A stretch of 64,000 bases of DNA, from the NCBI RefSeq assembly GCF_017348835.2, contig NZ_CP071375.1. One strand, 5' to 3'. Source of the DNA: Escherichia coli. GTDB lineage: Bacteria > Pseudomonadota > Gammaproteobacteria > Enterobacterales > Enterobacteriaceae. The position numbers and the translations under genes are program-made. Below, piece after piece: positions 37,258 to 56,436 of this stretch. The notes beneath the pieces were generated by a model, which saw only the letters and a program-made list of their open reading frames with translations, did no database searches and was not told where the DNA came from. The stretch's first letter is position 1; each line of letters begins with the position of its first letter.

Positions 37258-39243
37258 TTAATTTGGGGTTACGATATTCACCCACAAATCGAAATTATCC
37301 AGACAAGCAATAATTTCTTCCAGTTTCGCGCCATTGCCAATAATTTTGGCTTTCTTCGCTTTTACCAGATCCGCCATTTGGGCTTGTCCGGTCAGCACGG
37401 CGTGCAGATCTTCACGGCTGATGTAGAAAGAGGCGTCAGCTTGGGATTGCAGCGTTTTACGGTAGTTAAGCACGCTATCGTTCAGCGTCAGGTTGAGGTT
37501 ATCGCCGTTGCTCATATTGAAGTTCAGGCTGATATTTTTACCCGCGGCTTTCGCGCTATCGAGGCGAACGGACATAAAGTCGAACAGCATTTCGACCGAC
37601 ATTCCGCGAATGGTGTCCGGGGAACCGGTGGTGCCGTGGCTGAACTTATGCACCCCTTCGCGCAGCTCTTTCGCGCCGGTCAGGTAGAAACCGCGCCATG
37701 TGGCGGACTCGGCCTGATAGCCCAGCTGTTCAAAGTTATTCGCTTGCAGATTCTTCGCGACCTGGTCACCCGGGTTGGCGGCAATCACCTGTTTCAGCAG
37801 TTCTGCCGACCAGCGGTAATCACCTTGCTTGTTCGCTTCTTGCGCCAGGTTGATGACACGGGCAGAACCGCCCAGCGCTTTCACGTAACGTTTGCCCATC
37901 TCTACCTGACCATACGGATGCAGGTTAGCCGGGGTACCGTCGTAATAGCCAAGATAGAAGTTATACACCGCGCGGGCGTTGTGGCTGACAGAACCGTAAT
38001 AGCCGCGGCTGGCCCAGTTATTGGCAAGCGCAGGCGGCAGCTTAATCATGTCGCCGATTTCATTCATGGTGTAGCCCTGGTTCGCCAGGTGCAGGGTCTG
38101 GTCGTGAATATACTTGATGGTATCGCGATATTTACCAATATAATCATTGATATGCTTATTGCCCCAGACCGGCCAGGTGTGTGGCATAAACAGCACTTCC
38201 GCGTCGTTACCCCACATATCCAGCGTTTCGTTCAGGTACTCGGTCCACTTGCTGGTATCGCGGGTTTTCGCGCCGCGCAGAGTGTAGAAGTTGTGCAGGG
38301 TATGCGTGGCGTTCTCGGCGGTACACAGGGCTTTCAGGGCCGGAATATAGAAGTGCATTTCGGCTGGCGCTTCGCTACCTGGAGTCATCAGGAAGTCAAA
38401 CTCCAGGCCGTCGATAATCATCTTCTCGCCAGTTCTGACGATAGTTTTAGTCGGTGCAATAATGCTCGGGTCGCCCGTTGCCAGCGTCACGCCAAGGCCA
38501 TTACCCACGTTGCCTTGCGCGTTGTGCGGCAGTAACAGACCGTAAGAGTAGAGCGCACGGCGGCTCATGATGTTACCCGCCAGCACGTTTTCGCTGATGG
38601 CTTCGTCCATAAAGCCAGCAGGGGCAATCACCTGAACTTTGCCGGATTTAACATCGGCTTCAGAGATAATGCCTTTCACGCCACCATAGTGGTCGGTGTG
38701 GCTGTGAGTGTAGATAACGGCAACAATCGGTTTTTGCGGACGATGCTGGAAGTAAAGGTCAAGTGCGGCTTTTGCGGCAGGCGGCGTCACCAGCGGGTCG
38801 ATAACAATAATGCCTTTCTCGCCCTCAACGAACGTAATGTTAGAGATATCCTGGCCGCGCACCTGATACATTTTATCGGTGACTTTGAACAGGCCAGAAA
38901 TACCGTTGATTTGCGACTGACGCCACAGGCTGGGGTTTACGGTTTCCGGCGCTGCGGCATTAATATCAAATTTGTAATCGTCCGCGCGGTAGTAAACTTT
39001 ACCGTTCGCATCACGCAGAATACCTTCATCCAGCAGCGGGGCGATAAATCCACGCTGGGCATCGTCAAAATCCTGACGATCGCTAAACGGTAATGATTTG
39101 GCGTAATTCTGATTAACCTGTTGGGTATATTGAGTGGCGGCTTTCGCTTCCTCTTTCGCGTAAGCGGTATTTACCATCATGCCGCTGACGGCGGTTAACG
39201 CAATAACAATCCGGCTCAAACGGAATAACCGAGAGTTATTCAT
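37258..39243 (-). CDS. yjcS: Putative alkyl/aryl-sulfatase (metallo-beta-lactamase fold)
   Basis: 661 aa from [10 protein letters not shown]; signal peptide; HSHTDH metal-binding motif. Confidence 0.9.
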
Positions 39244-51699: not shown

Positions 51700-52578
<879 letters not shown>

Positions 52579-52595
52579 TACTGATCACAATACAA

Positions 52596-52931: not shown

Positions 52932-53332
52932 GTGGATTTCCTCAAAAGTCAGCAGGGCAAAAGCGCCAAAAAACGGCAGATTGCCGAAAAAGGCCGCAAT
53001 TATACACAAAATCCCTGAGTTTGTCGGGGGTACTGCTGATTTTAGACGACGATCGTTTTCATTTGAAAGGAAACGCAAAAAGAAAATAATCTTTTTGCCT
53101 CCATTTATTATTTAAGATAAGGTTAATGCTCTACTTGTTCTTTTTTTTATTCACATGATATTTTTATCTTTCTGACGTTTTAAACGTATCGGAAGATGTT
53201 ATTTATTCTAATAAAAAACAACACTCTAAATATAAAATTATTTCTTGCAGTAATTATAAAAGCCGAAAACAGAACTCAAAAACAATCTGGCTAAATAAAA
53301 GTAATAAAATTTGCTTTAAGGAAGAATTTTCT

Positions 53333-55561
53333 ATGTACACACAGACCCTGTATGAGTTAAGTCAGGAGGCTGAACGCCTGTTACAGCTTTCTCGCCAACA
53401 GTTGCAGTTACTGGAAAAAATGCCTCTCTCTGTACCCGGAGACGATGCGCCACAACTGGCTTTACCCTGGAGTCAGCCTAATATCGCCGAACGTCACGCG
53501 ATGCTGAATAATGAGTTGCGTAAAATTTCCCGACTGGAAATGGTGCTGGCAATTGTCGGTACCATGAAAGCAGGGAAATCAACCACCATTAATGCCATTG
53601 TTGGTACGGAGGTTCTGCCTAATCGCAATCGCCCAATGACTGCCCTGCCGACGCTTATTCGCCATACACCCGGGCAAAAAGAACCGGTACTGCATTTTTC
53701 ACATGTCGCGCCAATCGATTGTTTAATTCAACAATTACAACAACGCCTGCGTGATTGCGATATTAAGCATCTGACCGATGTGCTGGAAATAGATAAAGAT
53801 ATGCGTGCGCTTATGCAGCGGATCGAAAATGGCGTCGCTTTCGAAAAATATTATCTGGGTGCCCAGCCTATTTTTCATTGTCTGAAAAGTTTGAATGATT
53901 TGGTGCGACTGGCGAAGGCGCTGGACGTCGATTTTCCTTTTTCTGCTTACGCCGCCATTGAGCATATTCCCGTGATTGAAGTGGAGTTTGTCCATCTGGC
54001 GGGGCTGGAGAGTTATCCCGGTCAGTTGACGTTACTGGATACCCCCGGGCCAAATGAAGCCGGGCAACCGCATCTGCAAAAAATGCTTAACCAGCAGCTG
54101 GCACGCGCCTCGGCGGTACTGGCGGTGCTGGATTATACGCAACTGAAATCGATCTCCGATGAAGAGGTCCGTGAGGCGATTTTGGCGGTGGGGCAATCGG
54201 TGCCGCTGTATGTGCTGGTCAATAAGTTCGATCAACAGGATCGTAACAGTGACGACGCCGACCAGGTGCGGGCACTGATTTCCGGGACGCTGATGAAAGG
54301 CTGTATTACGCCACAGCAGATATTTCCGGTGTCGTCGATGTGGGGCTACCTGGCGAATCGGGCGCGCCATGAGTTAGCCAACAACGGTAAGTTACCAGCG
54401 CCAGAGCAACAACGCTGGGTGGAAGATTTTGCCCATGCCGCGCTCGGCAGGCGCTGGCGTCATGCCGATCTGGCGGACCTCGAACATATTCGTCATGCTG
54501 CCGATCAGTTGTGGGAAGATTCGCTGTTCGCCCAGCCAATTCAGGCGCTGCTTCATGCCGCTTACGCTAACGCCTCGTTGTATGCTCTGCGATCTGCCGC
54601 GCATAAACTGTTGAATTACGCGCAGCAGGCGCGGGAATACCTGGATTTTCGTGCGCACGGGTTAAACGTCGCTTGTGAACAATTGCGGCAAAATATCCAT
54701 CAGGTCGAAGAAAGTTTGCAGCTATTGCAACTCAATCAGGCGCAGGTGAGCGGCGAGATTAAACATGAAATCGAGCTGGCCCTGACCTCCGCCAACCACT
54801 TTCTGCGTCAACAGCAAGATGCGCTGAATGCGCAGTTTGCCGCCTTGTTTCAGGATGATTCGGAGCCGTTAAGCGAGATTCGTACCCGCTGTGAGACACT
54901 GTTACAGACGGCGCAGAACACCATCAGTCGCGACTTTACGCTGCGTTTTGCCGAGCTGGAATCCACCCTTTGCCGGGTGTTAACCGATGTTATTCGCCCC
55001 ATTGAGCAACAAGTCAAAATGGAATTGAGCGAGTCAGGGTTTCGTCCTGGGTTTCATTTTCCTGTTTTTCACGGCGTAGTTCCCCACTTCAACACTCGCC
55101 AGCTGTTCAGTGAAGTCATTTCGCGCCAGGAAGCAACGGACGAGCAGAGCACGCGTTTAGGCGTTGTGCGTGAGACTTTTTCGCGCTGGTTGAATCAGCC
55201 CGACTGGGGACGGGGAAATGAGAAATCCCCGACAGAAACGGTTGATTACAGTGCGTTGCAACGAGCATTAAGCGAAGAGGTCGATCTTTATTGCCAACAA
55301 ATGGCTAAAGTTCTGGCAGAGCAGGTCGATGAATCTGTTACGGCAGGCATGAATACTTTTTTCGCTGAGTTCGCTTCATGTTTGACGGAATTACAGACGC
55401 GTTTACGCGAAAGTCTGGCTCTGCGTCAACAAAATGAATCGGTGGTCAGGCTGATGCAGCAGCAATTGCAGCAGACTGTGATGACTCACGGCTGGATTTA
55501 CACCGACGCCCAGCTGTTACGCGATGATATTCAAACACTTTTCACGGCAGAACGATATTGA
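53333..55561 (+). CDS. crfC: Dynamin-like GTPase (clamp-binding sister replication fork colocalization protein)
   Basis: 742-aa ORF; P-loop GTMKAGKST near residue 75; long coiled-coil C-terminus; AT-rich upstream region. Confidence 0.9.
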   Translation: MYTQTLYELSQEAERLLQLSRQQLQLLEKMPLSVPGDDAPQLALPWSQPNIAERHAMLNNELRKISRLEMVLAIVGTMKAGKSTTINAIVGTEVLPNRNRPMTALPTLIRHTPGQKEPVLHFSHVAPIDCLIQQLQQRLRDCDIKHLTDVLEIDKDMRALMQRIENGVAFEKYYLGAQPIFHCLKSLNDLVRLAKALDVDFPFSAYAAIEHIPVIEVEFVHLAGLESYPGQLTLLDTPGPNEAGQPHLQKMLNQQLARASAVLAVLDYTQLKSISDEEVREAILAVGQSVPLYVLVNKFDQQDRNSDDADQVRALISGTLMKGCITPQQIFPVSSMWGYLANRARHELANNGKLPAPEQQRWVEDFAHAALGRRWRHADLADLEHIRHAADQLWEDSLFAQPIQALLHAAYANASLYALRSAAHKLLNYAQQAREYLDFRAHGLNVACEQLRQNIHQVEESLQLLQLNQAQVSGEIKHEIELALTSANHFLRQQQDALNAQFAALFQDDSEPLSEIRTRCETLLQTAQNTISRDFTLRFAELESTLCRVLTDVIRPIEQQVKMELSESGFRPGFHFPVFHGVVPHFNTRQLFSEVISRQEATDEQSTRLGVVRETFSRWLNQPDWGRGNEKSPTETVDYSALQRALSEEVDLYCQQMAKVLAEQVDESVTAGMNTFFAEFASCLTELQTRLRESLALRQQNESVVRLMQQQLQQTVMTHGWIYTDAQLLRDDIQTLFTAERY

Positions 55562-56436
55562 CCAAGACGTTACTTGACGGCCCCGGTCGCGTGCTGGAGT
55601 CGGTTTATCCCCGCTTTTTAGTGGATCTGGCGCAGGGCGATGATGCCCGCCTTCCACAAGCCCATCAGCAGCAGTTTCGTGAACGACTGATGCAGGAACT
55701 TCTTGCGCGCGTGCAGCTTCAGACATGGACGAACGGCGGCATGTTAAATGCGCCGCTTAGCCTGCGTCTGACATTGGTGGAAAAACTGGCGTCGATGCTG
55801 GATCCCGGTCATCTGGCACTGACGCAGATCGCGCAGCATCTGGCGCTGCTGCAAAAAATGGATCACCGCCAGCACTCTGCTTTCCCGGAGCTCCCCCAGC
55901 AAATTGCCGCCTTGTATGAGTGGTTTTCAGCCCGTTGTCGCTGGAAGGAAAAGGCATTAACGCAACGAGGCCTACTGGTGCAGGCAGGTGAACAGAGCGA
56001 GCAAATTTTTACCCGCTGGCGTGCTGGGGCGTATAACGCCTGGTCGTTGCCTGGGCGCTGTTTTATCGTTCTCGAAGAGTTGCGTTGGGGGGCATTTGGC
56101 GATGCCTGTCGTCTGGGAAGCCCGCAAGCGGTGGCGTTGTTGCTGGGTGATTTGCGCGTGAAAGCGACACAACATCTGGCAGAGAGTATCAATGCGGCCC
56201 CGACCACGCGTCACTATTACCATCAGTGGTTTGCCTCTTCGACCGTTCCGACGGGCGGGGATCATGCTGATTTTTTAAGTTGGCTGGGAAAGTGGACCAC
56301 GGCAGATAAACAACCCGTTTGCTGGTCAGTGACCCAACGTTGGCAAACTGTCGCGCTGGGGATGCCACGACTCTGTTCAGCGCAGCGTTTGGTGGGGGCA
56401 ATGGTCGAGGAAATCTTCTCTGTAAATTTGGCGTAA
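55558..56436 (+). CDS. yjcZ: Uncharacterized protein YjcZ, translationally coupled to crfC
   Basis: 292-aa ORF overlapping the crfC stop by 4 nt. Confidence 0.88.
   Translation: MTKTLLDGPGRVLESVYPRFLVDLAQGDDARLPQAHQQQFRERLMQELLARVQLQTWTNGGMLNAPLSLRLTLVEKLASMLDPGHLALTQIAQHLALLQKMDHRQHSAFPELPQQIAALYEWFSARCRWKEKALTQRGLLVQAGEQSEQIFTRWRAGAYNAWSLPGRCFIVLEELRWGAFGDACRLGSPQAVALLLGDLRVKATQHLAESINAAPTTRHYYHQWFASSTVPTGGDHADFLSWLGKWTTADKQPVCWSVTQRWQTVALGMPRLCSAQRLVGAMVEEIFSVNLA

Follow-up and report, generated by a model that had tools for sequence, protein, structure and literature searches.

The gene pair crfC-yjcZ of Escherichia coli, whose members are also known as yjdA or rdcA and as rdcB, respectively, was analysed within a 64,000-nt stretch of contig NZ_CP071375.1 (RefSeq assembly GCF_017348835.2), hereafter called the window. 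An earlier reading made from the sequence alone (the sequence-only reading) had recognised two open reading frames (ORFs) encoding 742 and 292 amino acids with a 4-nt overlap and had named them crfC and yjcZ. The ORF call and RefSeq confirmed both frames and the overlap, and the names were right according to RefSeq, the NCBIfam CrfC equivalog and Pfam YjcZ alike. In the 100%-identical strain annotated in RefSeq, yjdM and proP flank the same two coding sequences, which overlap by 4 nt there as well and whose products are named 'clamp-binding protein CrfC' and 'diguanylate cyclase regulator RdcB family protein' (YjcZ-like). The upstream gene ends in GAA CGA TAT TGA and the downstream gene begins with TTG ACC AAG, so that the two have the four nucleotides TTGA in common. 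Downstream of yjcZ there is a 263-bp spacer and then proP, and no patatin gene follows in the window. The locus is part of the E. coli chromosome and was present in 5419 of 5426 complete genomes. The pair of the window strain is 100% identical to that of the pig isolates PE164 and F2_81, and identities range from 95 to 100% across E. coli. It is an operon that has already been characterised in this species.

CrfC matched the NCBIfam equivalog NF007368 over its whole length (residues 1–742 on model positions 1–742) with 1596.3 bits against a cutoff of 1146, and Pfam Dynamin_N matched residues 72–277 (E 2.6e-18). The nucleotide-binding motifs GTMKAGKST (76–84), DTPG (236–239) and NKFD (297–300) as well as T103 were all found, and the P-loop GTPase named in the sequence-only reading is borne out by the first of these motifs and by the Dynamin_N match. 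In the AlphaFold2 (AF2) model, which is of medium confidence (predicted local distance difference test score, pLDDT, 77.9), an N-terminal helix is followed by a disordered loop containing QLALP, the GTPase (G) domain and long helices. The C-terminal helices span residues 414–505, 513–567 and 639–741. The long C-terminus that had been called a coiled coil is therefore recovered as long helices, which read as a dynamin-type stalk, and a coiled coil was not demonstrated. Foldseek matched the full-length model to SynDLP, IniA, BDLP, Cj-DLP1/2 and mitofusins (E 3e-12 to 1e-8, probability 1.00). Judged from this model, CrfC is a genuine bacterial dynamin-like protein (DLP). GTP hydrolysis and nucleotide-dependent self-assembly of CrfC are reported in the literature.

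The QLALP motif, described together with the defect of a Q41A mutant as a clamp-binding element (PMC6374313), lies in the predicted disordered loop, where pLDDT is low at residues 35–42. Among the orthologues examined, Q41 was restricted to E. coli, and the pattern [QVI]LxLx[WF] was kept in other genera. Escherichia sp. E1V33 has PLTLPW at residues 41–46 (window positions 53453–53470), and VLPLHFS is conserved there in most other genera. The loop is a conserved short motif, though perhaps not one that always serves in clamp binding.

RdcB matched Pfam YjcZ (PF13990) with 483 bits (cutoff 27) over residues 21–287 and contains the family-wide motif LEELxWGxFG. Conservation of its sequence begins at residue 1 and thus backs the annotated TTG start. 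The AF2 model built from a 94-sequence alignment (pLDDT 91.6, predicted template modelling score 0.91) is all-alpha with 16 helices. Searches of solved structures returned no structural relative, and the matches of the profile to PDB sequences were coiled-coil noise. As far as the model goes, RdcB is neither a disguised second dynamin nor a member of any solved fold. A Cys/His metal or redox site was also considered because C168, C184, C273 and H219 were invariant in 21 close homologues; the same positions are occupied by L, V, A or F in the 94-sequence alignment and belong to the hydrophobic core, which makes such a site unlikely, and the idea was dropped. In some E. coli assemblies, proteins of 438–442 aa (P0020–P0022) carry both Dynamin_N and YjcZ domains. 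Their YjcZ part is 96–98% identical to RdcB at 66–72% query coverage, and they look like internal deletions that fused crfC to yjcZ.

When about 100,000 species were scanned, each represented by one genome, the YjcZ family was found in 111, and the following locus counts cover 80 of these, nearly all labelled Enterobacteriaceae. A CrfC homologue lies directly upstream of yjcZ in all 80 species loci. The order yjdM, crfC, yjcZ is likewise kept in 80 of 80; proP, in those loci where it was captured, lies further downstream. Adding the strain with 100% identity to the window to the 80 species loci gives 81, of which 74 have the 4-nt overlap, in the form ATGA in 70 and TTGA in 4 Escherichia-type loci. 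Between genera, CrfC is 53–69% and YjcZ 43–64% identical, whereas the flanking yjdM and proP are 86–98% identical; by this comparison, the two genes evolve fast and together. No patatin gene was seen at these 80 core-clade loci, although the queries covered crfC, yjcZ, yjdM and proP only. In most non-Escherichia genera, yjcZ and proP are separated by an additional segment of about 1.7 kb, which is missing from Escherichia, Trabulsiella, Yokenella and some Superficieibacter. It was rejected as a third operon gene, as its ORF, encoding a 331-aa membrane protein, is on the opposite strand (for example, L036 6913–7908, minus strand).

The region directly upstream of crfC is exceptionally AT-rich. 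The last 250 bp before the start codon have a guanine plus cytosine (GC) content of 0.236, compared with a mean of 0.529 for the window, and form its lowest 250-bp stretch; only 0.013% of all 250-bp windows in the 64 kb reach such a low value. The yjdM-crfC spacer measures 401 bp, and the AT-richness is confined to the crfC-proximal ~250 bp. It is milder in other genera but kept (GC 0.27–0.40). H-NS binds this region, and hns deletion leads to de-repression (PMC6374313). A 12-genus alignment revealed two conserved blocks, GTAATTATAAAAGCCGAAAA (53250–53269) and a leader with a Shine-Dalgarno sequence (53289–53324), the latter (AAATTTGCGTTAAGGAA) being near-invariant across the 12 genera. The former block, conserved in Escherichia, Citrobacter, Kosakonia, Enterobacter and Leclercia, is a candidate for, and likely represents, the core promoter of crfC, with a transcription start predicted near 53267.

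In addition, yjcZ has a promoter of its own inside crfC. A search with the sigma-28 (FliA) consensus gave two matches in the window, one of which is located at 55306–55332 within crfC and fits the bipartite motif of the TAAAGTTT-N11-GCCGATAA type at 13 of 16 consensus bases. With a position weight matrix (PWM) built from 24 other strong FliA sites (training scores 9.1–30.1 bits), from which this site had been left out, it scored 16.2 bits, within the range of genuine sites, and ranked first among 127,946 positions. The sequence is letter-for-letter the motif '(yjdA)yjcZ' (FAT 19) of a FliA chromatin immunoprecipitation sequencing (ChIP-seq) study (Fitzgerald et al. 2014, PMC4183435). The activity of this promoter was confirmed by a published lacZ fusion, an in vitro selection (SELEX, systematic evolution of ligands by exponential enrichment) with RNA polymerase-sigma-28 gave a peak at the same coordinate, and published RNA-seq showed a drop in yjcZ RNA from 52 to 1 on deletion of fliA. 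Among 79 orthologous genes, the distance from the motif to the yjcZ start is unchanged in most genera. Conservation at third codon positions over the promoter codons ranks 21 among 734 windows, which lends modest support to selection on the promoter DNA as well as on the protein. Two further sigma-28-like sites were found on the minus strand, at 38974–39001 (13.4 bits, two mismatches to the consensus) and 38017–38044 (13.9 bits); both are absent from the published FliA ChIP-seq table.

An older prediction had placed a sigma-28 promoter upstream of crfC. There, GCCGAAAA at 53262–53269 resembles a -10 element but has no -35 element, and the top PWM score in the crfC upstream intergenic region was 6.6 bits, below the weakest training site (9.1), and a canonical sigma-28 site was rejected there. 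Fitzgerald et al. likewise had no FliA ChIP peak upstream of yjdA (PMC4183435). The sequence-only reading had placed the pair behind an AT-rich promoter. The very AT-rich DNA of about 250 bp is there, and what this description missed are the H-NS repression and the internal FliA promoter of yjcZ. The coordinates of all features are given in Table 1.

Table 1. Features of the crfC-yjcZ locus in the window and of related cassettes elsewhere
Feature	Position	Strand or replicon	Remarks
AT-rich region upstream of crfC/rdcA	53083..53332		GC 23.6%; H-NS-bound and H-NS-repressed according to the literature
Conserved block GCAGTAATTATAAAAGCCGAAAA, candidate core promoter	53247..53269	+	-10-like TATAAA at 53255–53260
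Conserved 5' leader	53289..53332	+	Shine-Dalgarno AAGGAAG at 53318–53324; precedes crfC ATG
crfC = yjdA = rdcA	53333..55561	+	ATG start, 742 aa; bacterial dynamin-like GTPase (ORF, NCBIfam, Pfam, AF2)
Codons of beta-clamp-binding motif 41-QLALP-45	53453..53467	+	Predicted disordered loop
G domain, residues ~69–350	53537..54382	+	G1 GTMKAGKST (K82), G2 T103, G3 DTPG, G4 NKFD
Intragenic sigma-28 (FliA) promoter TAAAGTTCTGGCAGAGCAGGTCGATGAA	55306..55333	+	Inside crfC; drives yjcZ/rdcB; ends 224 nt upstream of TTG
TTGA overlap	55558..55561	+	yjcZ start TTG, crfC stop TGA (ORFs, RefSeq)
yjcZ = rdcB	55558..56436	+	TTG start, 292 aa; all-alpha RdcA accessory protein (Pfam, AF2)
Triad	7361–11714 of L086 (DAECLI1_RS09020–09010)	E. 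coli SK1144 chromosome	Dynamin, RdcB-family protein, patatin; 4-nt overlaps
Triad	1372–5743 of L092	E. coli AW1.7 IncF plasmid	Dynamin, RdcB-family protein, patatin; 4-nt overlaps
JukA-YjcZ fusion and patatin	5001–7630 of L085	1.44-Mb metagenome contig	Patatin overlaps by 4 nt

The sequence-only reading had left the function of the YjcZ partner as unknown and had named the absence of a physical or genetic interaction between the two products as what would refute it. The former statement is outdated, and both kinds of interaction have been published. Pfiffer et al. 2019 renamed YjdA and YjcZ as RdcA and RdcB (PMC6510439). In their work, deletion of rdcA or rdcB phenocopied deletion of dgcE in macrocolony matrix, CsgD, csgB::lacZ and cyclic di-GMP (c-di-GMP), and these effects were non-additive. 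Two-hybrid assays indicated tight binding of RdcA to RdcB as well as its binding to itself and to DgcE's MASE1 domain, and both proteins were needed to activate the diguanylate cyclase DgcE via MASE1. The K82A variant of RdcA was functional, and the T103D variant, which binds GTP and cannot hydrolyse it, was not (PMC6510439). Moreover, dgcE, rdcA, rdcB and ynjH emerged as low-c-di-GMP mutants from an independent genome-wide transposon screen of 2026 based on sorting by Förster resonance energy transfer (PMC13031359).

Taken together, we are highly confident that the locus is the chromosomal rdcA-rdcB operon that activates DgcE, with two-tiered expression and with RdcB as a proposed adaptor. 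The crfC gene is expressed from the strongly AT-rich, H-NS-repressed upstream region, and yjcZ, which may be translated by coupling through TTGA, additionally receives its own sigma-28 transcript; the internal promoter might set the RdcB:RdcA ratio in the motile phase. According to the literature, RdcA is a soluble, self-associating and RdcB-binding dynamin-like GTPase and docks on the membrane-located MASE1 domain of DgcE when it is able to hydrolyse GTP or is nucleotide-free. RdcB would act as a compact, all-alpha adaptor; by giving the RdcA oligomer its shape or stability, it may align two DgcE molecules. The c-di-GMP made by DgcE acts, as the literature has it, through PdeR, DgcM and MlrA; it turns on csgD, curli and cellulose and puts a brake on motility. 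Binding of the beta-clamp via 41-QLALP, together with nucleoid partitioning, is probably a second, moonlighting role of RdcA.

Several points weigh against this interpretation. The pathway in which RdcB acts is established, and its biochemical effect on RdcA is what we infer. Two point mutants (K82A and T103D) are the basis for regarding GTP as an inhibitory signal, and two groups disagree over how much weight the clamp and nucleoid role has relative to the DgcE role. Translational coupling of yjcZ to crfC is deduced from the overlap alone. Deletion of yjcZ alone gave no change in motility (Fitzgerald et al., PMC4183435). In addition, yjdA/crfC RNA dropped 10-fold, from 111 to 11, in a fliA deletion (PMC4203485, Table 2). 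The internal promoter is unable to account for this drop, so the FliA dependence of crfC is unexplained and the logic of its promoter is not fully accounted for.

Relatives of the pair occur in a different setting. An exhaustive profile search yielded 263 YjcZ-family representatives, and all six non-core YjcZ clades examined consisted of triads of a DLP, a YjcZ member and a patatin-like phospholipase, mostly with 4-nt overlaps. The survey rests on 8 distant contexts plus BLAST searches of E. coli and plasmids. A dynamin-family GTPase was found directly upstream of the YjcZ member in 9 of the 10 distant contexts with an assessable upstream gene; the exception is a JukA fusion, and one further context had a 64-residue fragment upstream. 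In E. coli, a paralogous triad was present in 2615 of 5426 complete genomes (about 48%), inside a CP4-44-like island and next to antirestriction and cbtA/cbeA genes. Full-length comparison gave 34% identity between its DLP and CrfC (E 1e-121), with the DLP remaining below the CrfC equivalog cutoff (550 vs 1146 bits), and 31% identity between its YjcZ-like protein and RdcB (E 2e-39). The triad dynamins do not have the QLALP loop motif, and the catalytic motifs GGGxxG, GxSxG and DGG are intact in the patatin of the E. coli triad. Triads were also found on 44 plasmid records from Escherichia, Klebsiella and Enterobacter, one of them flanked by IS5 and IS30, and none was found in the phage collection. 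The JukA(YaaW)-YjcZ fusion has 532 aa, with a JukA match of 8e-74 in PADLOC and a YjcZ-like domain at 251–526; upstream of it lie parE/parC-like genes and no dynamin gene. JukA is known as a jumbo-phage sensor with variable effectors. Genes found next to triads include bpMoxR-VWA-HEPN and MNT/HepT. PADLOC v2 does not contain the triad, and our literature search found no paper on it.

CrfC might mainly bind beta-clamps on nascent DNA and hold sister forks together, with yjcZ dispensable for that. Its QLALP motif at 41–45 lies in a disordered loop, as is typical for clamp-binding peptides, NCBI names the family 'clamp-binding protein CrfC', and PMC6374313, citing Ozaki 2013, reports CrfC foci as well as anucleate cells both when crfC is deleted and when Q41 is changed to A. 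However, Q41 is absent even from a sister Escherichia species and is V or I elsewhere, whereas the G domain and the pairing with yjcZ are conserved everywhere. The operon is linked to the flagellar regulon rather than to replication genes. Clamp binding is independent of GTP, and the in vivo data relied on plasmid expression (Pfiffer et al., PMC6510439). We therefore consider a primarily replication-related role rather unlikely. A different objection would be that two unrelated genes merely abut and that their overlap is a by-product of compact packing. Overlaps of 4 nt are common in bacteria, and yjcZ has a promoter of its own. Such chance adjacency is nevertheless refuted by the published direct binding and identical phenotypes, and the adjacency is kept in all 80 loci from about 20 genera and in the distant triads, which leaves it next to no credibility.

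A further alternative concerns the origin and generic mechanism of the pair and is compatible with the function of RdcA/RdcB. The core pair may be the domesticated remnant of a mobile DLP-YjcZ-patatin cassette that lost its patatin and was rewired to DgcE, YjcZ/RdcB being ancestrally the middle adaptor between a sensor or nucleoside triphosphatase (NTPase) and a membrane-attacking effector. It fits this proposal that triads make up all the non-core clades examined, that the E. coli paralogue is homologous to CrfC and RdcB over their full length and has intact patatin motifs, that triads reside on plasmids and in one case between IS5 and IS30, and that a JukA-YjcZ fusion precedes a patatin, with bpMoxR-VWA-HEPN and MNT/HepT genes among the triad neighbours. 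Conversely, the role of the triad and the binding of YjcZ-like proteins to patatins are predictions from gene content, neither PADLOC v2 nor the literature search offered an account of the triad, and the non-core member P0130 is a pair without patatin. The tree, with 8 distant contexts sampled, is unrooted, so that the direction (loss or gain of the patatin) is undecided. We regard this origin as quite plausible, if slightly short of an even call. Gene content thus suggests that the YjcZ fold is an adaptor from sensor or NTPase to effector and that the core rdcAB is a patatin-less, domesticated relative. The wider proposal, that the YjcZ/RdcB fold is a previously unrecognised adaptor domain of mobile defence-like modules, linking a sensing NTPase or sensor (a dynamin-like GTPase or the phage sensor JukA) to a patatin phospholipase effector, and that rdcA-rdcB is their domesticated, effector-less descendant with its output turned from membrane attack to activating the membrane-bound DgcE, is put forward more tentatively.

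Compared with known systems, the pair agrees with RdcA/RdcB of E. coli K-12 (PMC6510439) in locus, coordinates, lengths and overlap, with K82 and T103 present; there is no difference in kind, and the window strain is not K-12. It is also the same protein as the clamp-binding DLP CrfC (Ozaki et al. 2013; Taniguchi et al. 2019, PMC6374313), with the same QLALP and H-NS-bound promoter region, although yjcZ is not involved in that work and Q41 is peculiar to E. coli among the orthologues examined. With paired bacterial DLPs (BDLP, Cj-DLP1/2, DynA, IniA/IniC and LeoABC/Eleos), CrfC shares the G domain, the helical stalk and an obligatory partner encoded in the operon. Unlike in those pairs, the partner, an all-alpha protein of 292 aa, has neither a GTPase domain nor a DLP-like fold, and no membrane paddle has been reported for CrfC in the literature; Liu et al. 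2018 regarded CrfC as an exception among paired DLPs. An Eleos system, which consists of significant LeoA and LeoBC matches for both genes, was not recognised, as CrfC matched LeoA/LeoBC marginally and partially (6e-6 and 8.5e-6) and YjcZ matched neither. Nor is the pair a Juk system, with its JukA (YaaW/DUF3944) sensor and JukB-like effector, and YjcZ matched no known defence-system model in PADLOC. The island and plasmid triads of E. coli have the same order of DLP and YjcZ-like genes, the 4-nt overlaps and the homologous proteins described above, whereas the window pair has no patatin and is followed by proP. Other intragenic FliA promoters, such as (flhC)motAB-cheAW and (yafY)ykfB (PMC4183435), have the same layout, the 3' end of the upstream gene harbouring the promoter; in contrast to these, yjcZ also overlaps the crfC stop codon, and two expression routes coexist.

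Elsewhere in the window, a GC-rich unit of 100 bp is repeated in tandem 8.8 times (97% matches) at positions 51702–52581, between yjdN and yjdM; the array looks like a cluster of palindromic repeats of the REP/BIME type (repetitive extragenic palindrome/bacterial interspersed mosaic element) and yields many spurious overlapping ORFs on both strands. Apart from the crfC upstream region, a 250-bp GC content of 0.30 or less was reached only at 1494–2426 and 15665–16319. By collinearity with strain F2_81, the former corresponds to the spacer between tyrB and aphA, where a pseudogene fragment is annotated, and the latter is the start of the pentapeptide-repeat gene yjcF.

The dual expression route of this pair, an overlap plus an internal sigma-28 promoter, is conserved across genera and offers a simple system for the control of subunit ratios. 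Because RdcB has a confidently predicted fold without a solved relative, a structure of RdcA and RdcB together with DgcE's MASE1 domain would be informative and would reveal how a soluble dynamin regulates a cyclase. The dynamin-YjcZ-patatin cassette is widespread in clinical Enterobacteriaceae, and, if the adaptor proposal is true, it is predicted to be a new anti-phage or membrane-stress system. If the cassette does serve in defence or membrane repair, RdcA/RdcB would be an immune-type module recruited into second-messenger signalling.

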